Shown in pieces: positions 16,010 through 45,400 of a stretch of DNA of 64,000 nucleotides. The translations under genes and the position numbers were made by a program. The notes under the pieces were generated by a model. It had not been told where the DNA came from. It saw nothing but the letters and a program-made list of their open reading frames with translations, and did no database searches. Each line of letters begins with the position of its first letter. Position 1 is the stretch's first letter. Origin of the DNA: Candidatus Omnitrophota bacterium (lineage in GTDB: Bacteria; Omnitrophota; Gorgyraeia; Zapsychrales; Fredricksoniimonadaceae); assembly GCA_903944345.1 (NCBI GenBank), contig CAJARJ010000019.1:7480-71479 (forward strand), given 5' to 3'.

Positions 16010-16027
16010 TAACAACTAGTTTATATG

Positions 16028-17245: not shown

Positions 17246-17249
<4 letters not shown>
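16161..17249 (+). CDS. dnaN: DNA polymerase III beta sliding clamp
   Basis: 362 aa; MRIKILKDDLLQGIQTVQNIV...PILSNMLLE, the typical DnaN N-terminus; RBS AAGGAGAG 8 nt upstream. Confidence 0.95.
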
Positions 17250-19980
<2,731 letters not shown>

Positions 19981-20013
19981 ACAGAGATAAATGCTTAGAA
20001 AGGCATTGGCGGT

Positions 20014-24775: not shown

Positions 24776-24789
24776 CCGGGAGACAAGAT

Positions 24790-25701: not shown

Positions 25702-25704
25702 GGA

Positions 25705-27378: not shown

Positions 27379-27396
27379 ATAATTGTTTCAGAAATT

Positions 27397-29571: not shown

Positions 29572-29574
29572 ATA

Positions 29575-29916
29575 ATGACTGCATATAATATTTCTCGCCA
29601 GACTTTAATTGCAAAACAAGTGCGGTTCGCAGATAGCCCATGGGCGCGCATGAAGGGCTTATTGGGACGCGACTCCTTGAATTCTGATGAGGGATTACTT
29701 ATAACCTGTTGCAATTCAATTCACATGTTTTTTATGCGGTTTTCCATTGATGCTATTTTCTTAGACCGTAATAATAGTGTTGTTGGACTTGTTTGTGCAA
29801 TTCCGCCGTTTTCTTTAAGTCCTGTTTTCTGGAATGCTTCCAAGGTGCTGGAATTGTCAAGTGGCACCATAAAGTTATCAGGTACAGAACTTAACGACAA
29901 GATTGAAATTTCCTGA
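29575..29916 (+). CDS. DUF192 family protein
   Basis: 113 aa; conserved DUF192 core IHMFFMRFSIDAIFLD. Confidence 0.7.
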   Translation: MTAYNISRQTLIAKQVRFADSPWARMKGLLGRDSLNSDEGLLITCCNSIHMFFMRFSIDAIFLDRNNSVVGLVCAIPPFSLSPVFWNASKVLELSSGTIKLSGTELNDKIEIS

Positions 29917-30027
29917 GTATATACTTCCGCGAAAAAGATTACTTAAACCTTTCTCACATATCATAAAAGTGCTAAATTAAAACTGTCCACTCTGGACATT
30001 AATCTCGGTTATCAGGATTGGCAAGAT

Positions 30028-31833
30028 ATGGGAGTAACTTACAAATTAAAATCAGAAGTGGTTGATTTTATAGTAGAGAGCAAGCGGAGTGTCCCCTCGC
30101 TAAGTTGCCGGAAGCTGGTTGATCTTGTTCGGCAGCGTTTCTCGATGGATGTTTCGAAATCTTCGATTAATGCAGTTCTTAAAGAGTCTGACTTGAGCAG
30201 CCCAGTTGGACGCCATCCCAAGGGGGTTCCGCTTAAGAATTTTTTTATTCCCAAAGAGAAAAAAGAAAGCTTATTGCAGCAGGTTCAGCCATTTCTTGTT
30301 CCGGAAACTGTTGAGGTTGAGCCGTTGATGGAATTAAGGGAGGATTTTATCCAGCAGTTACCCCCGGAATTACCGCAAGTTGCGCAAAGCGACCAGCCTT
30401 TGAGGCTGGCGCCGGATATCATGAAGCTTGGCTTAGTAGAAGATGTTGCGCCAGAAGACTTTATATTACCGGAAAAGCCTTCAAATTTGAGCGACCCGGA
30501 GCCGGAACAAATTTGGAACATTTCAGATAATTTGCTATTTGAAAAAGGCGGAGCAATTTTTTTTGCTGCCATGTGGTGGCAACGGGCAAGATCTCCGGTG
30601 ATTGGTCAGGCTGTATGGCGCAGTGGTATTTTTGATGGCGGGCGTTTTCTTGAGACTGACTTTATACAATGGCTGGAAGGTCTCTTTTTGTTTCAAGCGA
30701 TTTTCGAAAAAAAGCAAGAGGACTTCTCGCGCGAAGAAATGCGAACGCTTACGGCGCTTTTTGCACACAAACAAACCGATCTTCCTGTGCCCTTAATAAG
30801 GAAGGAAGCATCAGCCGAGGAAAACAGGCGGTTGGCTTGGGACATTGAATCGGCATTGGCAGAAGCTTTTAGCATGGTTAGTTGTTATGAGCTGATCACC
30901 AGATCGGGTCGCAAAGTGCTGATGAATGCTTTTTTAGCCGGTTTTTTGCAGAATTTGCAGGAGGCAGGAAATTCTAGTCTTCCATTATTTTTTGCAATTG
31001 AGCGGGTTGCAGACCGTTTGGTGAATAATATTGAGCCATTGACGCTGCTGTATGGCGCTGGTCAAGATCCTTTTTCGCCATTGTTTGCTGAATACTGGGA
31101 TTTATTGACCGGAGAAACGCAAGATCCGATAGATAGAGTACTGGTTCATATGGTGGATGGCCGGGTTTTCCCGATGTTTGAACGTTTGGCGGCGATCAGT
31201 CGTTCGGTTGTTTTAATTGGGCCGGATCGGGAACAGGTTCTATCGGGCATTGATTTCGGGATTATTGCTGATGGCACAGCGTTTCACTGTGCTTTTACAG
31301 AAAGGACAGCTTCTTATTGCAAAGGGCTTGCAACTATTGCTGGAAAGAAAATTTATGCTTTTTGGGTGAGAGGGCTAGATCAGTCAGAACAGAAAATAAT
31401 ATTGACCAATATTTCTGCCAGTGCTTGTACTGATAATGAGATTGTGGCCCTTTTGTTCAGGACTTATGCACAGCAGCCGGTAACGGATATTTCGCAAAAG
31501 CTTCATCCATTGGAAAATCGGCCATTTTTAGTGGAGAAGCAAGGGAATTTGACCACAATTTTTTATACTCTTTATGAGTATCTGCATCGGGAGCTTGTAG
31601 CCAGTGTATTTCCCGTTCTTAGTCAGCTGGCACTTGATGAATTCAGAAATAATGTTTACACCTTACCGGCGCATATTATTAATCAGCCGGGGGCCTTGCT
31701 GGTTCGACTGCAAGCTGAACCCGGACATCCTTTTTTTGATGCCTTGGTTGAGGCGGCCAGATGGATTAATGCCCAGGACATTCGCGATCAACAAGGGCGC
31801 AGGCTGTATCTTTCCGTAGCTTCTTCTAAATAA
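30028..31833 (+). CDS. Hypothetical 601-aa protein with an HTH-like N-terminus
   Basis: Long ORF with protein-like composition; N-terminal ~50 aa (VVDFIVESKRSVPSLSCRKLVDLVRQRFSMDVSKSSINAVLKE) resembles a DNA-binding HTH; remainder unrecognised. Preceded by the palindrome TGTCCACTCTGGACA (29984-29998). Confidence 0.55.
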   Translation: MGVTYKLKSEVVDFIVESKRSVPSLSCRKLVDLVRQRFSMDVSKSSINAVLKESDLSSPVGRHPKGVPLKNFFIPKEKKESLLQQVQPFLVPETVEVEPLMELREDFIQQLPPELPQVAQSDQPLRLAPDIMKLGLVEDVAPEDFILPEKPSNLSDPEPEQIWNISDNLLFEKGGAIFFAAMWWQRARSPVIGQAVWRSGIFDGGRFLETDFIQWLEGLFLFQAIFEKKQEDFSREEMRTLTALFAHKQTDLPVPLIRKEASAEENRRLAWDIESALAEAFSMVSCYELITRSGRKVLMNAFLAGFLQNLQEAGNSSLPLFFAIERVADRLVNNIEPLTLLYGAGQDPFSPLFAEYWDLLTGETQDPIDRVLVHMVDGRVFPMFERLAAISRSVVLIGPDREQVLSGIDFGIIADGTAFHCAFTERTASYCKGLATIAGKKIYAFWVRGLDQSEQKIILTNISASACTDNEIVALLFRTYAQQPVTDISQKLHPLENRPFLVEKQGNLTTIFYTLYEYLHRELVASVFPVLSQLALDEFRNNVYTLPAHIINQPGALLVRLQAEPGHPFFDALVEAARWINAQDIRDQQGRRLYLSVASSK

Positions 31834-31898
31834 AGCACGTTCAGTGGGTTGACGGGAAAAGCTGATATGCTATACTTCAAATGTCTTTAAGAGATAAG

Positions 31899-31930
31899 AG
31901 ATCCTAAAAGCATTAAACAGGATCTTTTTC
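31899..31930 (+). terminator. Putative intrinsic terminator after the 601-aa gene
   Basis: AGATCCT-(13-nt loop)-AGGATCT followed by TTTTTCGCTCTTTT; a second small hairpin CCGCC-ttag-GGCGG at 31944-31957. Confidence 0.45.
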
Positions 31931-32111
31931 GCTCTTTTAGGTTCCGCCTTAGGGCGGTACATGATCGCTTGGCTGTTATTAAAAGGTCAAGCGGCCTTTT
32001 TCGGAGTGATCCGCAAAAGGATATAAGCCCGGACATAGGGGCCGTTTCCGTTTCGTGTCTGTTTGGAACGAAACCCGGGCGTAACTTCTTTCAAACGCAG
32101 GTGACGCAACG

Positions 32112-32264
32112 ATGAGATGGGTAACAAACCGCAATGCTCAAAATCTTATTGAATATACCCTTGTCGTTGCCGTTGTTTCGGCTGCAGTTGTGGCCATGAG
32201 CACCTACGTGTTTCGCGCTGTTCAGGCGGCACAGAAAGAAATTATAAGGGAAGCCCAGGAATAG
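32112..32264 (+). CDS. flp: Flp-family pilin (50 aa)
   Basis: MRWVTNRNAQNLIEYTLVVAVVSAAVVAMSTYVFRAVQAAQKEIIREAQE: short basic leader, then EY at the Flp processing position and a hydrophobic helix. Below the ORF-track length cutoff. Confidence 0.7.
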   Translation: MRWVTNRNAQNLIEYTLVVAVVSAAVVAMSTYVFRAVQAAQKEIIREAQE

Positions 32265-32296
32265 TTTGTTCTCATCCGGATTTTTAAGGAGGATGT

Positions 32297-32503
32297 ATGA
32301 AGTTAAGGAATAAAAGAGGTCAAGGAACACTCGAGTATGTGATCTTGGTCACAGCAGTAATCGTTGTAGTTATTTATTTTCTTATGGGAACAGGTCAGGG
32401 GTCATTCCAGAACACAATGAATGGTGCATTAAACGAGGCCACTGAAGGAATGTCCACGATGTCCGGTCGTTTTGATGCGGCGTTTGCTCCTCCGGCCCCT
32501 TGA
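32297..32503 (+). CDS. flp: Flp-family pilin
   Basis: MKLRNKRGQGTLEYVILVTAVIVVVIYFLMG...; RBS AAGGAGG upstream. Confidence 0.85.
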   Translation: MKLRNKRGQGTLEYVILVTAVIVVVIYFLMGTGQGSFQNTMNGALNEATEGMSTMSGRFDAAFAPPAP

Positions 32504-32554
32504 GGTTGTGAAGAGTTGACAGAAAGAACAGAATGGCTCAACTGGAGGTAAATC

Positions 32555-32947
32555 ATGTTAAAGGTGTTAAGAAATAAAAAGGCTCAGAATACGGCGGAAT
32601 ACGCCATTCTGATCGCTTTGGTTGTTGGCGCTGTGGTCGCCATGCAGTCTTACGTTCAGCGCGGACTGCAGGCTAGAACACGAGGAACTTCATTGTATAT
32701 GAGAGACGAGATCTCAAATGCGATGAAAGCGGCCGATGCCAGTATGGCCGCCAGTATCGGTAATACCGGGCAGTACAATCCGTATTATCTGGATCAGCAG
32801 TATGAAACGACTCGCGATAGTGAAGAGACTGCAACTGCGGCTCCTTCCAATATCGTGTTGACGGGAACGTCAAATAAGTCTCGTGCTGCCGCCGGATATG
32901 ATGCGACTCTATATAATGGGGATGTAGGCGCAACGGGTCAGGATTAA
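32555..32947 (+). CDS. flp: Flp-family pilin with extended C-terminal domain
   Basis: MLKVLRNKKAQNTAEYAILIALVVGAVVAMQSYVQRGL...; paralog of the gene at 33522. Confidence 0.85.
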   Translation: MLKVLRNKKAQNTAEYAILIALVVGAVVAMQSYVQRGLQARTRGTSLYMRDEISNAMKAADASMAASIGNTGQYNPYYLDQQYETTRDSEETATAAPSNIVLTGTSNKSRAAAGYDATLYNGDVGATGQD

Positions 32948-32976
32948 AAAGCAGGTATTAAACAGGAGAGAAAATA

Positions 32977-33303
32977 ATGAGTATAAGAACAAAAAACAAT
33001 AAGGGACAAACGACCCTGGAGTATATCATCCTGATCGTTATTATCATTGCCGCCCTGTTGACTATACAAGGGTATCTCAAACGCGGCATTCAGGGGCGTC
33101 TGCGCAGTTCAGCGGACGATATTGGTGAGCAGTATGAATCGACAGCCACTAATCATACAAGAACAACGCGAGTTGCCTCTGTTACCAATGAGCGAACGAC
33201 ACAGGCCGGGGAATTCACCGGGTTTATTGGCCAGGAAAACAAGACAGTTGACGAATCTTATAACACGGCTAATGCAGAAATTGTGTACATGCCGGCGCCC
33301 TAA
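32977..33303 (+). CDS. flp: Flp-family pilin with extended C-terminal domain
   Basis: MSIRTKNNKGQTTLEYIILIVIIIAALLTIQGYLKRGIQGRLRSSADDIGEQYE...; paralog of the genes at 33916 and 35058. Confidence 0.85.
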   Translation: MSIRTKNNKGQTTLEYIILIVIIIAALLTIQGYLKRGIQGRLRSSADDIGEQYESTATNHTRTTRVASVTNERTTQAGEFTGFIGQENKTVDESYNTANAEIVYMPAP

Positions 33304-33318
33304 TCAGGAGAGAAACGC

Positions 33319-33501
33319 ATGAAAACAAACAAAGGTCAAAGTACTCTTGAATATGTACTGTTAGTGACAGCAGTTCTGGTGGTCATTATAGGTTGGGTGG
33401 CAGGGCCGGCATCTCCTTTCAAGCAGGCGGTCAACAATACCTTGTATGACGCATCAAATCAAATTGAGTCCATGTCCCAGCGCATTATGGCGGGGAAATA
33501 G
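33319..33501 (+). CDS. flp: Flp-family pilin
   Basis: MKTNKGQSTLEYVLLVTAVLVVIIGWVAGP...; paralog of the gene at 32297. Confidence 0.85.
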   Translation: MKTNKGQSTLEYVLLVTAVLVVIIGWVAGPASPFKQAVNNTLYDASNQIESMSQRIMAGK

Positions 33502-33521
33502 TTGTATAACGAGGAGGATCT

Positions 33522-33887
33522 ATGTTAAAAAGAACTCGCGATCGCAAAGGCCAGAATACGGCGGAATACGCGATCCTGATTGCGCTGGTTGTTGGAGCGG
33601 TTATTGCGATGCAGACTTACGTGCAGCGCGCCTTGAACGGACGGGTTTTTGATACGACCAAATATATGGCCGATAAAACCGCAGAAGTTACAGGAAACGG
33701 GTATCAGTATGAGCCGTATTATACAAATTCGGATTATCAGGTGGATAAAAACACTGGAGAAATCCGTAATCAGTATAATGCCGAGATTGGGATGTATTCG
33801 ACAGCTGAAACATTAAGAGCTGGTAATGAGGTGTCGGATTTTAACCGAGATGGCCTTACGGATTACGGTGACGTAGTTGTTCCGTAA
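33522..33887 (+). CDS. flp: Flp-family pilin with extended C-terminal domain
   Basis: MLKRTRDRKGQNTAEYAILIALVVGAVIAMQTYVQRAL...; paralog of the gene at 32555. Confidence 0.85.
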   Translation: MLKRTRDRKGQNTAEYAILIALVVGAVIAMQTYVQRALNGRVFDTTKYMADKTAEVTGNGYQYEPYYTNSDYQVDKNTGEIRNQYNAEIGMYSTAETLRAGNEVSDFNRDGLTDYGDVVVP

Positions 33888-33915
33888 TTTAATGGAAATT
33901 ATCAGGAGGCATTGC

Positions 33916-34245
33916 ATGAGAATCAATCTAAAAGGAAAAAACGGGCAAACAACCCTTGAGTACGCGATTTTGGTTATGATTATTATTGGCGCTTTGTTGA
34001 CGATTCAGGCCTACATCAAGCGCGGTATTCAGGGGCGGGTCAAAAGTTCGGCGGATGATATCGGCGAGCAATACGATCCGGGTAACACAAATTATGTTAA
34101 GGTAACTAATTCGATATCCAATACCCGCCAGACGTTTAATTCCGGTATTTCACGTTCGGAGTTAACGGCGGCGGATACGGTGGATGTTTCGACCTTCCAG
34201 GAGATAAGTAATCTGGAGTCGGGTGGTTATTGGGGAACACCGTAA
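33916..34245 (+). CDS. flp: Flp-family pilin with extended C-terminal domain
   Basis: From the internal ATG with RBS AGGAGG 6 nt upstream: MRINLKGKNGQTTLEYAILVMIIIGALLTIQAYIKRGIQGRVKSSADDIGEQYD... The track start at 33877 is probably too long. Confidence 0.82.
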   Translation: MRINLKGKNGQTTLEYAILVMIIIGALLTIQAYIKRGIQGRVKSSADDIGEQYDPGNTNYVKVTNSISNTRQTFNSGISRSELTAADTVDVSTFQEISNLESGGYWGTP

Positions 34246-34275
34246 TACGGTTTGGCTTTAGAGCCTTCAGGCTTT

Positions 34276-34318
34276 AAACATCAATGCCGGTTCCGTGACG
34301 GAACCGGCATTGATGTTT
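34276..34318 (+). repeat. Perfect 20-bp inverted repeat with 3-nt loop (hairpin or attenuator) inside the pilin array
   Basis: AAACATCAATGCCGGTTCCG-tga-CGGAACCGGCATTGATGTTT. A smaller hairpin AGCC-ttca-GGCT lies at 34262-34273. Located 30 nt after the stop of the 33916 pilin gene. Confidence 0.8.
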
Positions 34319-34330
34319 AGAAAGAAAAAT

Positions 34331-34681
34331 ATGATTAAGATGTTTCACGGACAACGCGGTCAGAGTGTGGCAACAGAATATGTTGTCATTTTTTTTCTGG
34401 CGATTGCCGCGGTGGCTGCAATGGCCATGTATGTCCGGCGCGCGTTTCAGGGGCGGGTTTATGATGCGAGAATGTATACAATGCAGAAAGCTGCCCAGGC
34501 TTTGGGAGAGTCGGTTCCTTTTGAGTATGAGCCATATTATGCCCAGACGGATAGCAATCTGGCCAAAAGAGCGGATGAAATGACGAGCATTAGTGGTGCT
34601 GAGGTTGTTCTGCGGACGTCTTTCGAAGCTACCACCACGAATAGTCATAGCGTGCAAAGGCAACCGGACAGAGGAATTTAG
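34331..34681 (+). CDS. Flp-like pilin, divergent (start uncertain)
   Basis: MIKMFHGQRGQSVATEYVVIFFLAIAAVAAMAMYVRRAFQGRVYDA...; G-x4-EY motif plus hydrophobic helix. Upstream in-frame ATGs at 34295 and 34313 lie inside the hairpin. Confidence 0.7.
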   Translation: MIKMFHGQRGQSVATEYVVIFFLAIAAVAAMAMYVRRAFQGRVYDARMYTMQKAAQALGESVPFEYEPYYAQTDSNLAKRADEMTSISGAEVVLRTSFEATTTNSHSVQRQPDRGI

Positions 34682-34707
34682 TCGAAATTGCTGTCGGGGG
34701 AAGCGAG

Positions 34708-35061
34708 ATGTTAAAAAAGAAACGTGCCCAGTCACTGGCTGAATACTCGATGTTAACCAGTATTATTGTGGCGGCTATTGTGGTTGTTTATCCGCTGGTC
34801 AAGCGCGGGCACCAGAGTTTGATTAAAGTGGTGGCTGATCAGGTTGGAAGCCAGAGGGATGCTGAGCAGGACTTTTCGCGAGGCTCTTCTTATCTGGCCT
34901 GTTCGGAAACTCGATATAACAGCCGCATTGGTGATGTAGTTCAGGAGGATGGGTACATAGACGGATCGGGAACTGCGCATTTTGCTTATATCCGAACTTA
35001 TGACCAGTCAACCAACAGTTCGAGTATTGAGATTACAAACATGGAGCATGATACGCAATGA
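34708..35061 (+). CDS. Flp-like pilin, divergent
   Basis: MLKKKRAQSLAEYSMLTSIIVAAIVVVYPLVKRGHQ... Confidence 0.72.
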   Translation: MLKKKRAQSLAEYSMLTSIIVAAIVVVYPLVKRGHQSLIKVVADQVGSQRDAEQDFSRGSSYLACSETRYNSRIGDVVQEDGYIDGSGTAHFAYIRTYDQSTNSSSIEITNMEHDTQ

Positions 35062-35390
35062 TCAGGCGCACAAATCAAGACGGACAGACAATTCTTGAGT
35101 ATTCGATCATCATGATTATTGTGATAGCTACTCTTATCACTATGCAGGGCTATATCAAGCGCGGCTTTCAGGGACGCTGGAAATCGGCAGTGGACGATCT
35201 TGGGGAGCAGTATGACCCCCGCGCGGTTTGCAGTACGATTGTTTATTCACAGTCCTCTAATTCAGTTGCCAGTGTTCGCGTGATGGATCATACATCCCAG
35301 AGTGGAATATCGGGCAAGTATACTATACGCAACGATCAGGTGCAGTCTTCAGAGACTAAAACCGGGACAACGGAAGTTCGCCGTCCCTAG
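35058..35390 (+). CDS. flp: Flp-family pilin with extended C-terminal domain
   Basis: MIRRTNQDGQTILEYSIIMIIVIATLITMQGYIKRGFQGRWKSAVDDLGEQYDP...; third member of the KGQTTLEY..KRGIQGR subfamily; ATGA overlap with the preceding gene. Confidence 0.85.
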   Translation: MIRRTNQDGQTILEYSIIMIIVIATLITMQGYIKRGFQGRWKSAVDDLGEQYDPRAVCSTIVYSQSSNSVASVRVMDHTSQSGISGKYTIRNDQVQSSETKTGTTEVRRP

Positions 35391-35402
35391 CGGAAAGATA
35401 TT

Positions 35403-36659
35403 ATGGGGGATGTTCGTAAAAGTTCAGACTGGCGCAAGGCTCAGGCGACCATTGAAATAGCAGCTTTTGGGGCTATTGTTATTTTTATTATTGGATTGAT
35501 TGTTCAGCAAGGATACAGTTCTACCCAACAGCAGAATATACAGCTACAGGCGCTAAGGATAGCGTTGCTAAAGTCTTATGAGAGTTCGCTGCAGGGCAGT
35601 TCGGCCCGTAATTCGGGGAGTTTTATGCTGATTGAGGATCGGCTTTCTCCGGCGGTGGGGAAATATGGCCCGCTGGATCGGCAGGTTTTTATGTCGAGTG
35701 GATCCGGTGTTATGAGCTATTTGTTGTTTCGTCCGATTGATTGGGAAGATTTGCCCAGAGACCTTCCGCTAACGGATGTTAGCGTTAACGGGCAGGATTT
35801 TGTTTTCAGAACAGCTGCTGCCGTCAAGTATACGATTAATCCAGGCTCAATTGTTGCCAATGATAGCATCACCATGCAATCGGGATCTGATCCTGATGCG
35901 GCCAGATTAAGCGAGGAAGGACTATGGGCCTGGCAGAGCATCGTCAAGTATAGCGAAGATTGGACCGGAAGTGCGGACTGTTCCAATATGCGCCGGAATG
36001 CAGCTAAAGAGAAGCCCTGTTCGGCTGCTGTGCAGGACAAGATTCCTTGGAAATGGAAAAAGGTTTCCTGGGGAGAGGCGGCTTCCGAGATTAATCTGGA
36101 TGACGGGGTTTACCCGAGTTACGATATTGATGGCGACCGTAGCGAAGAAACTCTTTACAAGATGAGCGGCAATACGGTATGGGTGATTGATTGGAACGCA
36201 GGTGATGTTGACAACAGTGCGGATGAATGGGAGTTTGCGGACGAAGAAGATATCCCCGGACTCAAAGACACAATGGAAATTGTCTCCATGCCGCTTTATC
36301 CCGGTGATCGTAACACATTGGAGATCAGGGAAAACGGAGCTTCCAGCCGAGCGACCAGCCTCAGCAGTAAAAGCCAGATGGATATTATTACCCGCAAGTT
36401 TGTGATGAATCCGCGCATGATCGGAGGAGGGACGCTTTGCTCAGGCGGCACACCTACCCAAGGATCAGTCGAAGCCTGCTGTCAGGGAGAGGGGTGTTGC
36501 TCTTCAGCTGACAATGCTTATAAAACCTGTTTTCAGTATGTTGACGGTTATGGCAGGAAGGTTCTTTATATTCGTAGCCGCATTCAAGATGAACGAAAGA
36601 GCGGATGGACGACTCCGGTGGTTCCGGCGGATATTGGAGATCGGACGATTTTCAAGTAA
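35403..36659 (+). CDS. TadE-like pseudopilin with a large Cys-containing C-terminal domain
   Basis: 418 aa; N-terminus KAQATIEIAAFGAIVIFIIGLIV resembles the TadE/TadF pseudopilin motif; 8 Cys including the cluster EACCQGEGCC. Confidence 0.65.
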   Translation: MGDVRKSSDWRKAQATIEIAAFGAIVIFIIGLIVQQGYSSTQQQNIQLQALRIALLKSYESSLQGSSARNSGSFMLIEDRLSPAVGKYGPLDRQVFMSSGSGVMSYLLFRPIDWEDLPRDLPLTDVSVNGQDFVFRTAAAVKYTINPGSIVANDSITMQSGSDPDAARLSEEGLWAWQSIVKYSEDWTGSADCSNMRRNAAKEKPCSAAVQDKIPWKWKKVSWGEAASEINLDDGVYPSYDIDGDRSEETLYKMSGNTVWVIDWNAGDVDNSADEWEFADEEDIPGLKDTMEIVSMPLYPGDRNTLEIRENGASSRATSLSSKSQMDIITRKFVMNPRMIGGGTLCSGGTPTQGSVEACCQGEGCCSSADNAYKTCFQYVDGYGRKVLYIRSRIQDERKSGWTTPVVPADIGDRTIFK

Positions 36660-36682
36660 GAGGTTCGTAAAGGGGAGCGGTT

Positions 36683-36925
36683 ATGCTGGATCATATTCCG
36701 AAATCAAACCATTCGTGCGTCGGGCAGAGCACTGTGGAGTTCTGTTTCGGACTTTTTATTGTGTTGTTGCTTTTTTTTGCCCTGGTTCAGGCTGTACGGT
36801 GGGTGGTTCTGGAGAAGATCGAGTTGCGAGTTGATTTTGAACGTTCCTTGCAGACAGGCAGTGGAGCGTATCAGCAGCTGAATCCGCACTTTCATCGATT
36901 GCGGCCTTTGGACATGGAATATTAG
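36683..36925 (+). CDS. TadE-like pseudopilin (80 aa)
   Basis: GQSTVEFCFGLFIVLLLFFALVQ TadE-type N-terminal motif. Confidence 0.65.
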   Translation: MLDHIPKSNHSCVGQSTVEFCFGLFIVLLLFFALVQAVRWVVLEKIELRVDFERSLQTGSGAYQQLNPHFHRLRPLDMEY

Positions 36926-36944
36926 CGGCGGCATTTAACCCCGG

Positions 36945-39773
36945 GTGGTTTGTTTTATGAAAAAAATAATGATGGATAACAGGGGGCAGATGGCGCTGTT
37001 GATGGTTTTGGTTGCTGCCATAGCGCTGGTGTGCCTGGCCATGACTCTGAATCTCACCCGGGTGGCGGCCACAAAAACGTTGACCATGATTGCAGCCCAT
37101 CAGGCATCTTCTTACACAGCTTCGCAAATGGCCAGCTATGCTCAGATGCAGAAAGAAACACAACTCGGAGGAAAGCAGAAAGTTTGTAAGAACACAGGAC
37201 TGCTGTCTTCTTTGTTGACATTTATTATTGTTCTGGTGATTGCGGTGATTGTGACGGTAGCTTCATATGGAACTGCGGGTCCTTCGATGTGGACTGTTGT
37301 TGCTGCGTGGGCAGCTGTAGCTATTTCGGCGGCCTCGGTGGTGTTGCAGGCTACGGTTATTCAGCCCGGATTGACCAAAATGTGGAATAAATTGCAGATG
37401 ACGATAGCAACGACGGAGGATCGTTTTCTGGAGATGGGACTGCAGGTGGCGCTTTCCGGAGCGGTGAGCGATAGTGAGCAAATTCCGGATTATTATGATT
37501 ATAATATGAACGGGGTGATATGGGATGGAGATATAAATTCTGATGAGCAGGATCAGATTTCCCGATTTTCTTATTACTACACGAAACATTTGCTGGATGC
37601 TTCGGCGGAATATGCTTCTTCAGGTGGCGTGGCCGGCATTAATCAGATGAAAACCATTTTAGGGGAGATTCGGGAGTCCTTTGGCCTTGAGATTGATCAT
37701 GGTTGTTGTGCAGACAAGGGGTATCACCCCGCTTTATGTAATCCATGTTGTGTCAGCAAGGAGTTGCGTCCGGGGTCCTGTCACCCGGAGATAGCTGATC
37801 CTGAGCTTTTTCCGGATGTCCCCTCCGAATGTATGGCTGGGGTCATGCCCTACTATCCGTTGAATTACGATCCTCTTTTTTGTAAGCGTATCCCTGATTC
37901 TTCCGTACCTGAGAGTGATCCCAAAAATAATACCATGGCTGCGGTGATGGGGATGGATGATGGAAATATGTCCATGACCAGGGTCTTTCCTAATCAGGCG
38001 TACTCAAGAGAAGCTTTGGACTCGATCAGAAACATGTTTCGTGGTGAGGATAGTGACGGCAAGCTGTTTCCGTTGTTATGGATGAATGCCGACGGCGCTC
38101 CTGAAACGTATAATCTTCGGGCCTCCGATATTACGGAGGCGTCGGCTAATTGTCATTGGTGTTCGGCGGATGGAGGGTTACCCAAGTGTGACAATGCGGG
38201 CAGTAATTATCATTATTGGAGAAATCCGTACACTGGGGCGGCTTTTACCCAGTTGGATCTGGGGGATCCGGTTTGTTCCGGGGACGGTTGCTGCGTTAAC
38301 AGACTTGTTCAGACAAGCGGTTCTTTACATGGCTTGCAAATGGACAAGGTTCAGGGTCTGGAAAGTGTCAGGAATTTCTCCGGACATGAAAGTTTTTTTG
38401 AAGAAGATCCTCCGGATGCAGATTGTCCCGGTAGTAGTGGTTTATGGCGCAAAGGATCAGACTTGTACTGTTCTTCGACCATTCCCTACTATGCCAATTG
38501 TTCCAAAGTTCAGGGCATGAGTTGTCAGGAAGAATATTCCGAAGATTCATGTGAGTGCAGTGAGTCCTTGAGGAAGGATATCTGGCGGGATGATGATCTG
38601 GATGATTTTACCGTCTGGCTGCGACAGGCGGCCACTTTAATTGATAGGTTTATGCAAACCAGCAGTCCGGCCTTGTTTGCCCAGATTGACGATTATTACG
38701 AAGACTTCACCAAACTTGTTGAAGAGTTGAGAGCCAAAAGAGGGCTCATGGAAGGTTGGCGGACGGGCTTTCAGCAGTGGCTGGATCGCACCGATTTCGC
38801 CGAAGGTGGTTTATGGTGCCTTCCAAATGATCCGAACACCTTGGCTATAGATGAGCGTGCCGCAGTGCTGGCTGCAGGACCATATGGTAGTGTTCAGTCT
38901 GTTGTTGCCTGCCTGGATTATAATAAAGATAATGCGGTTAAGCTGCAAACGTGTATTGACAATTCACAGACTTGTGCCAGCGGCCCGCGTCGCCTGGGTC
39001 CGGCCGGAGACCTGGAGTCGAACCAGAAGGCCGCCGTGAATGCCGATATCAAATTCCGCAAACGCTGGGAGTATTTAAGCGGGATTTATAATTTATCGGT
39101 CAGAGTACGCGACAGCCTGACCAGGGCTATTGATACGGTCGATGAATCCAGGTTGAACTCCTTGCTGTCCGCGCTGGAGAGTGTCAAGACGTCCTATGGA
39201 GCAGTCACGGGCAACAATTTTCTTATTTACGGCTGGAAAAGCGGGCAGGGAAAAGGCGGAAAATTGTGGCATGTGGTCAAGGCGGACTTATGGTTACCCA
39301 AGCGTTGTGATGGATTTGACTGTCGGGCTACACGTTTCCCATGGGTAAAAACTTATAAAAAGGGTTCTTTCAAGCGCTGTTACGAGTTATTTTCATATAA
39401 TGGTTGTGTGAAAACACTGGTTAAACGTTATGACGCTTCACCCAGAAGTCTTTATAATGAAAATGCCCAGTTTGGCAGTGGTTTGGCTGTATGGTTTCCT
39501 CGTAACAACAAAAACACAGGAAGCGCGACTATCAACGACGGACTGGATGAGTGTAATCAGGTTGAGTCAGGAGTGCCTTCAGGGGCTTTTATTCTTAGCA
39601 CACAGACCATGAGTTCAGCCCCAGCGGCTTGTCAGAATGCTCTGGCGGGAGCCCTCAGTTCTGCTACAACAGGAAGTGAGCTTTGTGCTGCTTATGAAAT
39701 GGTTGGCAGCGGTTATCAGGTAAGATTTCTGGACTGTAATCAGTGTGGCAGTGTAGATCCACATAATGACTAG
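36945..39773 (+). CDS. TadG-like large pseudopilin / putative pilus tip protein, cysteine-rich (942 aa, ~36 Cys)
   Basis: N-terminus NRGQMALLMVLVAAIALVCLAMTLNLTRVAATKTLTMIAAHQAS matches the TadG N-terminal pattern; remainder is rich in Cys clusters (GCCADKGYHPALCNPCC, CECSES, CNQCG). Confidence 0.7.
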   Translation: MVCFMKKIMMDNRGQMALLMVLVAAIALVCLAMTLNLTRVAATKTLTMIAAHQASSYTASQMASYAQMQKETQLGGKQKVCKNTGLLSSLLTFIIVLVIAVIVTVASYGTAGPSMWTVVAAWAAVAISAASVVLQATVIQPGLTKMWNKLQMTIATTEDRFLEMGLQVALSGAVSDSEQIPDYYDYNMNGVIWDGDINSDEQDQISRFSYYYTKHLLDASAEYASSGGVAGINQMKTILGEIRESFGLEIDHGCCADKGYHPALCNPCCVSKELRPGSCHPEIADPELFPDVPSECMAGVMPYYPLNYDPLFCKRIPDSSVPESDPKNNTMAAVMGMDDGNMSMTRVFPNQAYSREALDSIRNMFRGEDSDGKLFPLLWMNADGAPETYNLRASDITEASANCHWCSADGGLPKCDNAGSNYHYWRNPYTGAAFTQLDLGDPVCSGDGCCVNRLVQTSGSLHGLQMDKVQGLESVRNFSGHESFFEEDPPDADCPGSSGLWRKGSDLYCSSTIPYYANCSKVQGMSCQEEYSEDSCECSESLRKDIWRDDDLDDFTVWLRQAATLIDRFMQTSSPALFAQIDDYYEDFTKLVEELRAKRGLMEGWRTGFQQWLDRTDFAEGGLWCLPNDPNTLAIDERAAVLAAGPYGSVQSVVACLDYNKDNAVKLQTCIDNSQTCASGPRRLGPAGDLESNQKAAVNADIKFRKRWEYLSGIYNLSVRVRDSLTRAIDTVDESRLNSLLSALESVKTSYGAVTGNNFLIYGWKSGQGKGGKLWHVVKADLWLPKRCDGFDCRATRFPWVKTYKKGSFKRCYELFSYNGCVKTLVKRYDASPRSLYNENAQFGSGLAVWFPRNNKNTGSATINDGLDECNQVESGVPSGAFILSTQTMSSAPAACQNALAGALSSATTGSELCAAYEMVGSGYQVRFLDCNQCGSVDPHND

Positions 39774-39793
39774 TCTGAGAGAGGCGGTTTAAA

Positions 39794-40168
39794 TTGTTTA
39801 ACAGACGCGCCTATTCGGTTCTGGAATATCTTGTCATTTTTGTTGTTGTTATTGCCGCTTTGCTGGTTTTGGGGTCGTATATTCATAGTGCCATGCAGGG
39901 GCAATTTCGCACTGCGGGGGCGACAATGGCTGATCTTCGCCAGCATGAAACATCAAGTCAGGACTGCGCCTATGACGATCAGCTTGGGATATGGTATTCT
40001 GTTGCTTGTGTTGATAACGGCTGGGGCACGAATTGCCGTTATGCGGGTGTTGATAATGTCAATATGCGCGCGGAGTGTCGCAGCAACCCCTGTAATGGGC
40101 AATGTCCATTCTCCTGTTGTCAGGAAAATGTGAAACGTAGTTGTGCGATGCCTTGTGCTCCTTCCTGA
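39794..40168 (+). CDS. Pilin-like protein with a Cys-rich C-terminal module (14 Cys in 124 aa)
   Basis: SVLEYLVIFVVVIAALLVLGSYIHSAMQGQF pilin-like N-terminus, then CAYDD...CVDNGWGTNCRYAG...CRSNPCNGQCPFSCCQENVKRSCAMPCAPS. Confidence 0.7.
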   Translation: MFNRRAYSVLEYLVIFVVVIAALLVLGSYIHSAMQGQFRTAGATMADLRQHETSSQDCAYDDQLGIWYSVACVDNGWGTNCRYAGVDNVNMRAECRSNPCNGQCPFSCCQENVKRSCAMPCAPS

Positions 40169-40219
40169 TAAGTGGCATGGATGTTGTCCTGAACAGCAGA
40201 AAAATTTACAAGGAGAAAC

Positions 40220-41065
40220 ATGTTAGCGGTCAGTCTGTTTCTGTTTTTTCTTAGCGTGATGATATCTGTTTATTACGTGATTCCTTTTGTTGTTAGAAGG
40301 ATTATTGAGGTCAACAAGAATCGCGCACGCAATTTTGCCCGGGACATGGATCGAACCATGTTAACCCAGGACATTCAAAAAGTTCGGGTTCTTTTTATTA
40401 TCGGACCTTTTGTTTGTGGAGCCGCCGGTTTTTTTCTGGGTGGAGTGATTGGTGTTCTGGTTGGATCAGCGGTCGGTTTTGTGATCCCCAGAACGTATGC
40501 GTCTATCTTGCAGGGTCAGAGACGGGAACAGTTTGAAAAACAACTGGTGGATGCCCTTATGATCATGTCCAGTTCGTTTCGGGGCGGCTTGAGTCTGGTT
40601 CAGTCTATGGAATCGGTAGTTGATGAAATGCCCGATCCTATCCGCCAGGAATTCGGGCTCGTTCTGGGCGAGAACAAGATTGGAGTTCTTTTGGATGACG
40701 CTTTCAATCGACTTTATAAACGTTTGCCGTCACCGCCATTACAGCAAATGATTAGTGCTATTTTGCTGGCACGCGAGACGGGCGGAAATCTGCCGGCTAT
40801 CTTTTCGCGAATTGTGAGCACTATACGTGAACGTCGAAAGATCGAGGATAATCTTAAAGTTCTGACTTTGCAGGGTAAGCTGCAGGCTTTTGTGATGAGC
40901 GGCTTGCCGGTAGGGTTCTTTTTTCTGGTCAATACAACCAATCCCAATTATTTTAAGATCATGACCAATACCGATACGGGGCGCATGCTGTTGGCGGTTT
41001 GTGCGTTTTTATGGGTTCTTGGAACTTTCATGATCATAAAGATCAGTACTATCAAGGAGGTCTGA
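40220..41065 (+). CDS. tadB: Tad pilus inner-membrane platform protein TadB (GspF-like)
   Basis: 281 aa; T2SS-F domain (LYKRLPSPPLQQMISAILLARETGGNLPAIFSRIVSTIRERRKIEDNLKVLTLQGKLQAFVMSGLP). Confidence 0.85.
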   Translation: MLAVSLFLFFLSVMISVYYVIPFVVRRIIEVNKNRARNFARDMDRTMLTQDIQKVRVLFIIGPFVCGAAGFFLGGVIGVLVGSAVGFVIPRTYASILQGQRREQFEKQLVDALMIMSSSFRGGLSLVQSMESVVDEMPDPIRQEFGLVLGENKIGVLLDDAFNRLYKRLPSPPLQQMISAILLARETGGNLPAIFSRIVSTIRERRKIEDNLKVLTLQGKLQAFVMSGLPVGFFFLVNTTNPNYFKIMTNTDTGRMLLAVCAFLWVLGTFMIIKISTIKEV

Positions 41066-41066
41066 C

Positions 41067-41957
41067 GTGCTTCTTCTGAGTTTGATTCTAATCACACTGT
41101 CGGTAACCATTTTGATTTGTGCCTTTCTTCCTGGTTTAAGCGAGTTCCGGCCACAGCCCAAGATCCAGAATTTTGGACAAATGCCGGATTTCTTTGGAAA
41201 GAAAAAGAAACAGGAAGGCAATGACTTTATAAAAGGTTTGGCGCTCTTTAATCGCCCCCTGATTGGCGGCGAGATGCGTTTGCGGCTGGTGAGGGACTTG
41301 TCTATCGCCCAGTTGAATATGACTCCGGAAGAGTTTATGCTGATTAAAGAAATCATGATAGTTGTATTACTTGTTTTTGTTCCCGGTTTCTTTCCGGGAG
41401 ACATGCTTATCTTTGCTGTTTTAATGTCGGTTGCCTTTGGGTATTTCGCTCCGGAGTTCTGGCTTAAAGGAAAGATCAAGAAGGTCAAAGAGGATTTCGT
41501 GCGTTATTTGCCGGACACGGTTGATCTTTTGGGTTTATGCGTTAATGCAGGGCTGGATTTCATGATGGCGCTTAAATGGGTTTCGGAGAAGTCTTCGCCT
41601 AATGTAGTGGTCAATGAAATGAACAGCTTGTTGCAGGAAATTAGTGTTGGTAAGCCCAGGCGGGAGGCGTTACGTGATGCTGCGCGCAAGTACGAATTGG
41701 CGGATCTTTCTACGTTTTCGCGGACATTGATCCAAGCGGATAAAATGGGGACATCGGTGTCTGAAGCGCTCAATATTCTTTCTGAGGATATGCGTCAGGC
41801 GCGCTATCGTCGCGGAGAAGCCATGGCTCTTAAGGCCCCCATCAAGCTTTTGGTTCCGTTGCTTTTCTGTATCTTTCCGGTAGTCGGGATTCTGGTTGGA
41901 GGACCGATTTTTCTTGATTTTATGACCAATAACCCTATGAAAAAGATGGGGATGTAA
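41067..41957 (+). CDS. tadC: Tad pilus inner-membrane platform protein TadC (GspF-like)
   Basis: 296 aa; T2SS-F domain (YLPDTVDLLGLCVNAGLDFMMALKWV...LSTFSRTLIQADKMGTSVSEALNILSEDMRQARYRRGEAMALKAPIKLLVPLLFCIFPVV). Confidence 0.85.
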   Translation: MLLLSLILITLSVTILICAFLPGLSEFRPQPKIQNFGQMPDFFGKKKKQEGNDFIKGLALFNRPLIGGEMRLRLVRDLSIAQLNMTPEEFMLIKEIMIVVLLVFVPGFFPGDMLIFAVLMSVAFGYFAPEFWLKGKIKKVKEDFVRYLPDTVDLLGLCVNAGLDFMMALKWVSEKSSPNVVVNEMNSLLQEISVGKPRREALRDAARKYELADLSTFSRTLIQADKMGTSVSEALNILSEDMRQARYRRGEAMALKAPIKLLVPLLFCIFPVVGILVGGPIFLDFMTNNPMKKMGM

Positions 41958-41989
41958 TAAAGTCATCATTTTCTATTAGCGAATAAAAA

Positions 41990-42016
41990 TGTCCAGTCTG
42001 AGGCTGGACATTTTTA
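41990..42016. terminator. Strong intrinsic terminator (bidirectional appearance) after tadC
   Basis: AAAAA-TGTCCAG-tctgagg-CTGGACA-TTTTT; 7-bp stem flanked by an A-run and a T-run. Confidence 0.8.
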
Positions 42017-42443
42017 TTAAAGATTGTCCATTCTGGTGTTTGCAGAGCATTTATTTATCCCTAAAGAGTGCCCAATCAAATTAATAAATGCTTACTGGCT
42101 AAGAGGAGTCCTGATTGAAAAGTTAGGTAGATAAAGTGCGAATAGTTTCCTTCCATTTTGGAAATGAGCAAAGGATTGTAGCGTATAAATTCGTCTGGTA
42201 TTGATTCTGTTTATAGGGTTTAATTTACGCCATAACGCGCAGGATAAAGAGAATTTGCAGGGAATTAAAAAACAATTTAAGATCATTTATATTGAGGAAT
42301 GTAACCTGTTGTCAGTAAAAGTGATTTTATTGTAAATAGATTTGCCAGCGAATTGTCTTGCCTATACTATAATGTTATACTTCGTCCATCGATTGACTTG
42401 AGGTATCGAGTCGATATTTTGGGTTTATTGACGGAGTCCCGGT

Positions 42444-45400
42444 ATGGACAAGCAGCTGGATTCAAAGACCGTCGAGTCTTTTTCAACCGTTGCCGCAGCT
42501 GAAGCGCCTATCAGCGTTTATGCCGAGGGTGGCTTCCGGAGTCGTTTTAATTTCTGGATCCGCGCGGTTTCTGTTATTCTCATCTGCATTTTTCTTCCTG
42601 ATCAGATTGGCTGGGCTTTCAATTATAATCCGGCCGTGATTTATCCCCAGAATGCACTTAATTACCAGCCCGCACCGGTTTTAACTTCAGCCGAACGTTC
42701 TTCTGCGCAGATTGCTGGCAGTGTCGGTTTTCTTTTGAATCAGGTAAAAGGTCTTGAGCAAGCGCGCTTTGAGCTGAAGCTTAATCCTGCAAATGCTCTT
42801 CAGCTGGCGAAAGAGCTCAAGCAACCGGTTTTGGCAATCGATAGCCGTAGAAGTTTTAACGAATTGGCCATATCAGAAATTACGCAATGGCTGGCTGAGC
42901 CTCAGGTTCATATCCTTAATTGCGGCGTTTACGCGCTCAAGGATTTGTTGGATTTTGAGGGGATCAGCAAAACACCCGAAGAGCTGTCGGTCATAACCAT
43001 TCTGGCGGATCTTCTAAGCGATGTGCTTCGGACCGGGGACGAGCGTCTGAAAACATCATTGTTTGCCTTGAGCCAGGCTATGGATGCGTTTGGGCTGGAG
43101 TACCAGGCGGTCAAGCTTCGTCCGGAAAATCTCCGGTTGTTGGCCACACCTTTTATTGCTCATTTTAAAGATGAACATTTCGTAACAGTGCTGCGGATAG
43201 AGGGGGACACGGTTTATTTGAACGACATCGGAAACCCCGGTCAGATGTCGATCTCTGAGTTGGCGCAGCGGGCTTCCGGGTTTGCCCTGGCTCGGGAGAT
43301 GAAGTTTTTTGTGAAAGCTGGCTTTGAACGTGTTGCGCAAAACACACAAACATTCGTTTGGGGTGACAAATGGCGTAATAAGTCAGATGAACTGCCCGGG
43401 CTCGTGTCCAATTCTCAGATAGCCATGCAGGTAGGAATACAAGTTGTGGGGGCGCTGGCGGCCGCTTGGATGGGGCCAGGCGGATGGGCGGCGTATGCGA
43501 CGTTTTCCATGAGCATGGCAGCATCTTCTTTCGCGCAGGCGGTTGGACAGGTTTGTCAGATGCGCGGAGGCAGCGGTCAAAGCTGCATGTTGTTAAGTAC
43601 TGCGATTAGCGTTGGACTGACTATGGGGACTTCGGCGCTGCTTTCTGCCGGACAGGCGGCAGGAACCCAGGCTGCGGGTCAGGCTTTGGCTAAAGATGGA
43701 GTCACGAATGCTTCGGCTCAGGTTTCGCAGGAAACGGTCAACAAGGCGGCGTCTGAAGCGGCGGGAGCCATTTCTCGTAGCGGAGAGATTGCGACACAGG
43801 AGGCCATCACCTCGTCTGTGACCAAGGCGTTTGCCAATCAGGGGATTGCTGTCTCGGGCGAGTTGGGGGCCAAAATTAGTGCGGCTGCCGCGGCTAACGT
43901 TACCGCCAAGGTTGCCGAAGCTTCGGCTTCAACTATGGCATCAACATTTGCTGCCGGTTTTGCGCAAGGAGCTATTATTGGTGTCGCCAAAGGGGCGGTG
44001 GAGTACCAGGTTGTCAAGATGATCGACAAGGCTCTGGGGGACGACGATTATATTCTCAAGAGCACAGTGCAGGCCATTGCTTCATCGGTCGCAGGGGCGA
44101 TGGTGGGATCGATTGTTCAGTGGGGAATCAGTAATGCGGTCACCGCTTACAACGAGTCTTCCGCGGCAAATACCGATACAGAAACAGCCGCTGCGTCAAC
44201 AGACACTTCAGCAACATCGACACAGGCGGCGACTACAGCAACAGACTCGGCCATGATTCGCCTGACCAAGCTGGACGGCGGCTTTAATCCGTATGACTTG
44301 GGCAAGAATTCATTAGGAACGGTATTGTCGCGCACATTGATGGATCGTTCGCTTTTGGCCGGAGTTGTCGGGCATTTGGCGGCCATGGGCGTGCGCTATG
44401 CGGTTTCCGGTGGCGCGGTGACCCAGGAAGAAGAGGGAGATTTATCTGTTGTGTTGGGCCAGCTGGGTAATACCTTCGGCCAGATGGCTGGAAACTTTGC
44501 GATGGGCCAGAGTAAAATCGGTTATGACAACCGTACGCCGGAACAAACGGTCAAGGATGCCAAGGACTGGACAGCTTTGTTTAAACAGGCTATCCCTAAA
44601 GCCGTGGTTTCTGCCGGCCTGACTTATGCGCTCCTGGCCATGGAAGAAAGCGTTATCGGAGACGATGACGGGTCTCATTCCTATAAAGAAAAACAGATGG
44701 CGTTTCGCAACACCGCGTTTATGATCTCGGGCGTTATGACTGGCCTGGCTCTGGGGTTAGCGGCGGAGTATGCTCATCAAGATGCTGATTCTCCTGTGGG
44801 TGCGACAACCTCTTCTGTTGTAGAGGATGGCCGGTTAGAGGCTGGTTACAAGACTGGCTATTGGCAGCAGCAAAAAGAATTTCAGATGGATTTCTGGGGT
44901 CTTGGCGCCATGCAGACGCTCACCAACGAGATGGGCGGAACACCGTATTCGTTAAATGCGGGGCTGGCTGCGGGCCAGTTAACCAGCACCATGCAGGGGT
45001 TAACCGGTTTTACGCCTCAAACCGCCTGGCAGATAGACAAGATGTGGCTGGCAACCAAGAAGGCCAATTCGGAGCTTTCAGCAGACAACAGGGAATCAAA
45101 CAGCGTTCTTAAGTTGCGTCACCGTATTGCAATCTTCGATATTATTGATCCTGGCATGATCAATATTGATTATGTTAACTCACAATTCTCGGCCGGAGTT
45201 GTCAGCAATGTTATTGCTACCGGAGAGATTGCAGCCAGCGCGACTTTCGCTCGTGGAAGCATTGACGGGCAGCAGTATTTGACCGATTGGGGTTTCCAGT
45301 GGCGGCCGGCCATAACCAGGGATATTGTCACTCCGGATGGCAAGCCTACCGGGCGGGCATTGGTTTTTATGGGGGCTACAAATGATGTTAACCGTTTGCT

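Follow-up and report, generated by a model that had tools for sequence, protein, structure and literature searches.

A putative self-cleaving maturation module at the N-terminus of an Omnitrophota giant protein: a C39 peptidase domain and a conserved double-glycine-like motif

The analyzed 64,000-nucleotide stretch of contig CAJARJ010000019.1 of Candidatus Omnitrophota bacterium (assembly GCA_903944345.1, positions 7,480–71,479 of the forward strand; hereafter, the window, with positions counted from its first letter) contains a giant open reading frame (ORF) on the plus strand. It starts with ATG at 42444, is still open at the window end (42444–63998), and encodes more than 7185 amino acids; an earlier note on this DNA had described the beginning of the giant protein. 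The first approximately 300 residues of the encoded protein can be read as an N-terminal maturation module of a giant surface or envelope protein, in which an export signal would carry the chain across the inner membrane, a C39 peptidase domain would cut the chain at an adjacent leader-like motif, and the body would be released to Tad-like machinery encoded upstream. We assign this reading, drawn from sequence and predicted structure, a probability of about 0.5. It builds on the identity of the peptidase domain, the conservation of its catalytic residues, the conservation and single-copy occurrence of the motif, and the synteny of the locus.

The only Pfam match above the curated cut-off in the 7185 residues scanned is to Peptidase_C39 (PF03412; E = 1.6e-10, 41.4 bits with a gathering score of 22). 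It covers residues 201–282 and profile positions 42–126 of 133, i.e., the His/Asp half of the domain, whose core occupies approximately residues 140–285 (42861–43298, plus strand). TIGR03796 is matched with 25 bits at a cut-off of 853, and by its peptidase part only. The ATP-binding cassette (ABC) transporter domains ABC_membrane and ABC_tran, also sought with Pfam in the 7185 residues, gave no match. The three peptides from which the earlier note had proposed a hydrophobic N-terminal helix and a C39-like cysteine peptidase all lie in this one plus-strand frame, FWIRAVSVILICIFLP at residues 37–52, VHILNCGVYALKDLL at residues 155–169, and EHFVTVLRIEGDTVYLNDIGNPGQMSISELAQRASGFAL at residues 244–282.

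Structure prediction with AlphaFold2 (AF2) on an alignment of 16 sequences gives values of 85–95 for the predicted local distance difference test (pLDDT) over residues ~130–310; a second model, of residues 128–322 with 26 sequences, has a mean pLDDT of 89.9 and a predicted template modeling score (pTM) of 0.86. Over the domain, pLDDT values in the two models span 85–98. The top Foldseek matches of the models in the PDB are C39 domains only. The match to LahT (6mpz) has E = 5.4e-7, a template modeling score (TM) of 0.72–0.73, and a root-mean-square deviation of 2.8 Å over 128 columns; further matches are to PCAT1 and to ComA (3k8u, TMt 0.70; and 5xe9). Cys-less C39-like domains are matched as well (HlyB C39-like domain 3zua, 3b79; also 7sgr and 8dck), and so are 9l5u and 8ssm. 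The family profile, compared with PDB sequences, retrieves LahT at E = 6.7e-9. As far as the fold is concerned, the models, with their matches to LahT, ComA, and PCAT1, bear out the C39 assignment. The Pfam and family-profile matches put the similarity to C39 far above chance level; the domain is very probably a genuine C39 peptidase, and probably an active one.

Among 1.84 billion representative proteins, a profile search identifies 1464 relatives, 211 of them at E < 1e-30, and the best 158 were aligned. The putative nucleophile Cys160 (codon 42921–42923, exactly as claimed earlier) aligns with the Cys of LahT in QMEALECGAASL and is conserved in 154 of 155 relatives. The putative general base His245 aligns with the His of LahT NHFVVL and is conserved in 153/153 relatives; its codon is 43176–43178, and the earlier placement at 43177–43179 is off by one. 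Asp261 (codon 43224–43226) lies at +16 from His245, as in LahT, and the residue at this position among relatives is Asp in 124, Glu in 10, and Asn in 5. In the profile alignment, the family pattern lnCGvyaL falls on LahT ECGAASL, and eHfvlV falls on NHFVVL. The Pfam match, the fold match, the alignment with LahT, and the invariance across the 158 relatives all agree with the Cys and His blocks that the earlier note had recognized. The LahT triad is Cys27/His101/Asp117; hence, the His-to-Asp spacing is 16 in both proteins, while the Cys-to-His spacing is 85 in the window protein vs. 74 in LahT. C39-like domains (CLDs) are defined by the loss of the catalytic Cys; the family keeps both Cys and His, which argues for selection on catalysis and separates it from CLDs. 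Another acidic residue, Asp189 (codon 43008–43010), belongs to the helix ILADLLSD. All relatives share it (158/158), so that its conservation exceeds that of the catalytic Asp261, yet it stands outside the classic C39 triad.

A motif resembling a double-glycine leader, VAQNTQTFVWGD, begins about 36 residues past the catalytic Asp, at residues 297–308 (43332–43367, plus strand; Gly307 codon 43362–43364). In the window protein it reads VAQNTQTFVWGD↓KW, the arrow marking the candidate cut. Gly307 is invariant in 145/145 sequences, and the surrounding region is variable in length and sequence. With the residue after Gly307 counted as –1, the family profile shows Val, Leu, or Ile (95%) at –12; Ser, Pro, or Thr at –11; Asp or Glu at –10; Glu (47%) at –8; Ala (45%) at –7; Val or Ile (94%) at –4; Trp, Leu, or Met at –3; Gly (~100%) at –2; and Ala (48%), Ser (18%), Asp (13%), Asn (11%), and Gly (5%) at –1, where Ala, Ser, and Gly together make up 71%. 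Examples from other members are LSDSEAKQIMGA, LSASEAKKVLGA, and VSDDQLRQIFGG. The published consensus of double-glycine leaders is LSXXELXXIXGG, given also as Leu(–12)-X3-Glu(–8)-Leu(–7) followed by GG, GA, or GS. C39 peptidases cut behind such a pair when an amphipathic leader precedes it, with hydrophobic residues at –4, –7, and –12 and Glu at –8; the window protein has a motif of this kind in cis. The earlier note had raised self-processing as one option, and the conserved motif lends it indirect support. In the second AF2 model, the block 298–307 has a pLDDT of 94, vs. 76 before and 72 after it, consistent with a segment packed on the domain, although this does not prove the packing. In the literature, we found no mention of a single leader-like motif, of an AXA-type signal site, or of residue-level conservation in these proteins; the conserved double-glycine-like motif is a new detail of the present analysis. 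Single self-cleavage at the motif, after Gly307-Asp308, has by our estimate nearly an even chance.

The number of such sites bears on how the peptidase may work. A position-specific scoring matrix (PSSM) of the motif was scanned along the window protein (first 7185 amino acids) and 25 relatives longer than 3000 amino acids (3000–7800). It finds one site per protein, just after the C39 domain (residues 135–353), in 24 of the 25 relatives, and none in the remaining one, P0062. In the window protein, this site reaches a score of 17.4, against 9.0 for the runner-up and a 95% shuffle threshold of 13.9; no further sites above the shuffle threshold were found by the scan in the bodies of the window protein and the 25 long relatives. 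According to the polyprotein model of West-Roberts et al. (2023), the C39 peptidase would chop the giant protein into many functional polypeptides. The model has been proposed in the literature, the protein is very long, and its composition changes along the length, switching at approximately residue 3500 from Ala/Gly/Ser/Thr-rich to Ala/Glu/Leu/Lys/Arg-rich; moreover, the scan covered the first 7185 residues, and a relaxed G-[G/A/S] specificity is possible. However, the single site of the window protein, and likewise of 24/25 relatives, speaks against it, and cleavage into many polypeptides seems highly improbable. P0062 itself (3237 amino acids) is unusual in that it carries three internal copies of the C39 family, at ~554–797, 1615–1812, and 1849–2009, and has no PSSM match to the leader-like motif.

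The peptidase might also act in trans, on exported proteins with double-glycine leaders, on prey surface proteins, or on the adjacent Flp-type prepilins; the earlier note had suggested that it could process Flp-like leader peptides. Such a role would agree with the conserved catalytic residues, and West-Roberts et al. (2023) leave it open. Neither Pfam and NCBIfam on the scanned ORFs nor a scan of ORFs with multiple transmembrane segments recognized an A24 prepilin peptidase in the 64-kb window, and C39-like papain folds also occur as toxin domains (Tox-PL-C39; fold matches 9l5u and 8ssm). On the other side, a prepilin peptidase may just lie beyond the window, and the six-frame PSSM scan of the window retrieves the motif as the only clear match, with one weak extra match (score 10.2) inside dnaN. 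A search of the window with the canonical regular expression for separate double-glycine-leader genes gives a single minus-strand match that lacks a start codon in the 5′ flank inspected. The at least eight consecutive genes with Flp/class-III prepilin signals (32555–36659, 36945–39773, and 39794–40168, including the N-termini of a 418-residue and a 942-residue protein) encode a [K/R/N]-rich leader, the site [G/A]↓Q-[N/T]-T-[A/L]-E-Y, and then a hydrophobic helix, with Lys, Asn, Arg, or Asp, and not Gly, at –2; processing of Flp-type leaders by the C39 domain is therefore not supported. Further, class-III prepilin leaders are cut on the cytoplasmic face, opposite to the predicted location of the C39 domain. 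Finally, action in trans would leave the invariant single-copy motif behind the domain unexplained. Overall, we consider it unlikely.

Several points weigh against self-cleavage at the motif. The family consists of two clades. The canonical clade has KPCG at the Cys and [L/M/K]-G-A in the motif; the other, which includes the window protein, has LNCG at the Cys and W-G-[S/N/D] in the motif. In this second clade, –1 is occupied by Asp, Asn, or Ser, with Asp being the residue of the window protein, and positions –8/–7 are not Glu/Leu. To our knowledge, Asp at P1 (–1) is not found in any known C39 substrate, and therefore confidence in self-cleavage is lower for this particular protein. Since the two motif types track the two clades, co-variation of the motif with the Cys-adjacent loop does not constitute independent evidence. 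PCAT-type (peptidase-containing ABC transporter) C39 domains act in the cytoplasm, whereas export is predicted for the domain of the window protein. Six residues before the Cys, the window protein has the canonical Gln (Q154, position –6), and relatives have Pro, Glu, Asp, Gly, or Asn there, with a five-residue deletion in half of the family; the work on LahT doubts the oxyanion role of the equivalent Gln21. Lastly, the invariant Gly may have a structural role, or the segment might serve as an inhibitory pseudo-substrate.

Some of these points would fit a non-catalytic domain which, as the CLD of HlyB, tethers or chaperones the unfolded chain in export, the motif being a bound, uncleaved ligand or an autoinhibitor: the canonical Gln is not conserved, the Asp at –1 is atypical for cleavage, and the fold matches include HlyB CLD 3zua and 3b79. 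However, CLDs lose the Cys, whereas here the Cys (154/155) and His (153/153) are retained and the Asp is mostly kept. A non-catalytic role is very improbable, and we reject it given the invariant Cys and His.

The protein begins with a charged tail and one hydrophobic segment (residues 37–58) ahead of the C39 domain. Preceding the peptidase, a conserved export signal (residues 31–58, 42534–42617, plus strand) comprises a basic n-region, an 11-residue h-region (41–51), and a c-region. In the entire 7185 residues, only residues 35–59 reach a 19-residue Kyte–Doolittle (KD) hydropathy of ≥1.6; the peak of 1.84 is reached only when the c-region is included, and the uncharged core, bounded by R40 and P52-E53, has 11 residues. 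The consensus of 145 relatives is F-[K/R]-S-[R/S]-F-K-x-W-I-R in the n-region, where the Arg residues of the window protein are R32, R34, and R40, and P52-[E/D]-Q54-x-[A/S/G/C]56-[W/Q]-[A/S]58, followed by [F/V/I]-[E/N]-Y-[D/N], in the c-region. The residues at 56 (Ala, Ser, Gly, or Cys) and 58 (Ala or Ser) are small in 145/145 covering sequences. Small residues at –3/–1 are the signal peptidase I rule; positions 56/58 fit it, and cleavage by this enzyme is therefore predicted to follow A58 (42617/42618). The Lys plus Arg value is 2.99 in the N-terminal flank of the hydrophobic core vs. 1.33 in the C-terminal flank; from this charge bias, the N-terminus is predicted to be cytoplasmic and the peptidase to be on the exported side. 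A Tat-type signal is rejected, as an inspection of the n-region by eye shows its Arg residues standing singly, without an RR pair.

The earlier note had described this segment as a signal-anchor. It is indeed the sole strongly hydrophobic segment of the 7185 residues; its role as an anchor is doubtful, and a cleavable signal is at least as likely, given the 11-residue core and the AXA-type site. If uncleaved, the anchor would keep both peptidase and giant body fixed in the inner membrane until the C39 cut releases the body, a role that would be analogous to release in LapG/LapA. This arrangement would agree with the segment being the single strongly hydrophobic one in the protein, with the helix predicted by AF2 over residues 34–55, and with the segment and its flanks being far more conserved than ordinary signal peptides. 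Opposed to it are the short uncharged core, from R40 to P52-E53; the small residues at –3/–1 in every covering sequence, as in cleaved signal peptides; and the predicted signal peptides adjoining C39 domains reported by West-Roberts et al. (2023). We regard the retained anchor as possible but rather doubtful. A membrane-spanning anchor takes about 18–20 residues, and the h-region of a cleavable Sec signal about 7–15. With only 11 core residues, stable anchoring seems less likely, and the sequence features favor a signal peptide that is cleaved and has an elongated n-region. Its total length of 58 residues is atypical for a Sec-type signal peptide, and its flanks are unusually conserved.

Directly after the putative signal cleavage site, residues 59–67 (42618–42644, plus strand) form a strongly conserved motif, [F/V/I]-[E/N]-Y-[D/N]-[P/W]-x-V-L-W. 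The conservation of these residues and of the n-region F-K-S-R-F-K-x-W-I-R far exceeds that of ordinary signal-peptide flanks. High conservation around the signal core suggests a recognition function. By contrast with the conserved signal, the tail at residues 1–30 (42444–42533) is variable and not conserved, and the length preceding the hydrophobic core in relatives ranges from 14 to 212 amino acids. Residues 68–139 (42645–42860) form a linker and an N-terminal extension of the peptidase; a helix predicted there, at residues 82–100, holds the near-invariant L97 and L98.

The proposed self-cleaving module would operate as follows; its topology, the removal of the signal peptide, the catalysis, and the position of the cut are inferred. 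The basic and unusually long signal (residues 31–58) would send the nascent chain across the inner membrane via Sec, and would probably be removed by signal peptidase I after Ala58 or, otherwise, be kept as an N-in anchor. On the exported side, the C39 domain (Cys160, His245, Asp261) would be catalytically competent and could bind residues 297–308 in the way the peptidases of PCAT, ComA, and LahT bind a bacteriocin leader. One cut after Gly307-Asp308, in cis or between neighboring copies, would separate the ~300-residue export/peptidase module from the giant body, and the freed body might then be handled by, or work with, the Tad-like secretin/pilus machinery encoded directly upstream. More tentatively, and with appreciably less confidence, the module may be seen as a self-contained cassette of an enzyme with its own leader, where the one cut would give the body a new N-terminus, consisting of a short polar stretch and then a hydrophobic helix, for hand-over to the Tad-like machine.

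Behind the motif lie two Ala/Gly-rich, moderately hydrophobic segments, residues 323–346 and 380–403 (43410–43652, plus strand; KD 1.53 and 1.57), which possibly form a membrane hairpin of the giant body and, in the mature body, may be the N-terminus that interacts with the membrane. Between them is a Cys371-x9-Cys381 loop (43554–43586, plus strand), which in close relatives reaching that far takes the form C-x(6-14)-C and is not conserved in the wider family. The giant protein has only 8 Cys residues in its 7185 amino acids, 4 of them within the first 500 residues. Tandem DNA repeats were sought in the giant ORF and none were found.

The start of the giant ORF, read directly from the sequence, is preceded by a stop codon at 42429–42431, just 5′ of the ATG, and by a Shine–Dalgarno-like GGAG at 42433–42436 (plus strand), 7 nt 5′ of the start codon. 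A non-coding spacer of 486 bp (41958–42443) separates tadC from the giant gene. It contains four matches resembling sigma-70 promoters, and a hairpin with a T-run at 42392–42415, just 5′ of the ribosome-binding site of the giant gene; all of these are consensus matches only.

Upstream of the spacer, a locus resembling Tad and type II secretion systems (T2SS) extends over 23813–41957 on the plus strand. The plus-strand order leading to the giant gene is dnaA, dnaN, gyrB, gyrA, malate dehydrogenase, a Rotamase_2 peptidyl-prolyl isomerase (PPIase), RcpC/CpaB, a secretin, and an ATPase; then DUF192, the Flp/class-III pilin-like genes, the 418- and 942-residue proteins of unknown function, and two T2SSF (TadB/TadC) genes ending at 41957. 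The Tad-like locus contains two unusual fusions: the secretin (25705–27378, plus strand) carries a C-terminal TonB_C domain (E = 2.3e-17), and the T2SSE/TadA-type ATPase (27397–29571, plus strand; 724 amino acids) carries an N-terminal ParA/MinD-like (TadZ-like) domain. Among the pilin-like genes, two ORFs overlap in different frames, both without a Pfam match, one at 39794–40168 with a pilin-like N-terminus (…SVLEYLVIFVVVIAALLV) and the other, very hydrophobic, at 39774–40130; the former fits the locus better.

Nearly all related loci with enough upstream sequence show the same succession of pilins, the 418- and 942-residue proteins, TadB, TadC, and then the C39 gene. All 15 homologues (15/15) from a word-index search carry PF03412, the named ones being metagenome-assembled genomes of Candidatus Omnitrophica/Omnitrophota, with a best identity of 47%. 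A scan of one genome per GTDB species yields 60 loci, almost all from Candidatus Omnitrophota, some bearing the third-party label “uncultured Planctomycetales”; here the best identity is 49%, and the genome of the window therefore represents a new lineage relative to the searched collections. The module is at the extreme N-terminus in relatives (median start at residue 2). Of 158 relatives, 26 are longer than 3000 amino acids and 13 are longer than 5000; many others are contig-end fragments. One locus, L002 (ENA ERZ25039529 contig_97998, 6018–9979), shows a degraded arrangement, in which the T2SSF genes are in fragments and the C39 ORF stops after 297 amino acids in an unrelated tail; its neighbors, reminiscent of a defense island, are a phage-type integrase, a SIR2-TPR protein, and a BilD_N/ThiF-like gene. 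Either pseudogene formation or an indel artefact of long-read sequencing might account for L002.

The origin region of the chromosome lies within the window: minus-strand parA/parB and yidC are followed by plus-strand dnaA (14660–16009), dnaN, gyrB, and gyrA (all within 10451–22479), and the GC skew changes sign at ~12000–16000, where it turns from about –0.2 to +0.19. The starts of the Tad-like locus and of the giant gene are thus at a distance of about 10–28 kb from oriC, on the leading strand. This is similar to the position of the expressed Tad complex of Velamenicoccus archaeovorus, at 12–30 kb of its chromosome (Seymour et al., 2023).

Giant proteins of Omnitrophota, reaching >100,000 amino acids, are among the largest known. 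The presence of a C39 domain after an export signal is a re-discovery, in a new genome, of a published bioinformatic annotation; the added value here is the candidate cut site after an invariant Gly, plus the residue-level conservation data. If self-cleavage takes place as proposed, it would define the mature N-terminus of Omnitrophota giants and place a C39 peptidase outside the context of an ABC transporter. The more tentative reading as a self-contained cassette, if true, would mean that giant proteins can mature by a previously undescribed autoproteolytic route, and would provide the first C39/double-glycine system acting in cis outside an ABC transporter.

Among known systems, the closest are the Omnitrophota giants themselves, and the window protein joins those with an N-terminal signal and C39 domain behind a Tad/T2SS-like locus, a layout that is already published. 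West-Roberts et al. (2023; bioRxiv 10.1101/2023.11.21.568195) describe Omnitrophota giant proteins whose N-terminal C39 domain adjoins a predicted signal peptide, and a conserved upstream secretion locus of gspD/E/F and rcpC homologues, a Rotamase_2 PPIase, and genes with class III signal peptides. Downstream, their giant genes are followed by pilZ and carbohydrate import genes; in the present case the giant ORF extends past the window end. A cluster of 24 proteins sharing an architecture, with PF03412 as the sole Pfam family and Tad/T2SS flanks, is given in bioRxiv 10.64898/2026.06.07.730766. The window protein shares with the giants of West-Roberts et al. (2023) the phylum, an ORF of >7000 amino acids, the N-terminal signal and C39 domain, a body with almost no other Pfam match, and the upstream Rotamase_2 PPIase, rcpC, gspD/E/F-like genes, and class III signal genes; it differs in being ≤49% identical to any relative found. 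The papers on the Omnitrophota giants stop at domain annotation and call the cleavage points unknown; the motif, the AXA-type site, and the residue conservation are added here.

With the C39 domains of PCATs and of ABC transporter maturation and secretion (AMS) proteins (ComA, LahT, PCAT1; MEROPS C39, PF03412), the window protein shares the fold, the aligned Cys/His/Asp, and the +16 offset from His to Asp; the window motif shares with their leaders the register of hydrophobic positions and the Gly at –2. Unlike them, the window domain is not fused to an ABC transporter (no match to a transmembrane or nucleotide-binding domain), follows an export signal, and is predicted to be outside the cytoplasm; its Cys–His spacing is 85 and not 74, and Gln –6 is not conserved in its family. 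Further, enzyme and putative leader are here in one chain, with the “leader” C-terminal to the enzyme. The CLD of HlyB (type I secretion) has the same fold (3zua, 7sgr, 8dck) and is likewise linked to export of a very large, largely unfolded protein, whereas CLDs lack the catalytic Cys that the window family keeps, and no ABC transporter is present here.

In LapG/LapA release and in autoprocessing by the cysteine protease domain (CPD) of multifunctional-autoprocessing repeats-in-toxin (MARTX) proteins, giant proteins that are secreted or surface-bound are likewise trimmed by a cysteine protease, at a defined short motif close to the module for retention or export. The proteases belong to other families: LapG, which is encoded separately, to the transglutaminase-like C93, and the MARTX CPD to C80; their motifs differ from that of the window protein. 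The two systems offer a functional parallel, in which a single cut brings about maturation or release of a giant protein. Finally, the papain-like Tox-PL-C39 toxin domains are C-terminal cassettes of polymorphic toxins, paired with immunity genes (Zhang et al., 2012; PMC3482391). They have in common with the window protein a C39-related papain fold inside a large secreted protein (matches 9l5u, 8ssm), whereas the domain analyzed here is N-terminal, conserved in position, and linked to the adjacent leader-like motif.

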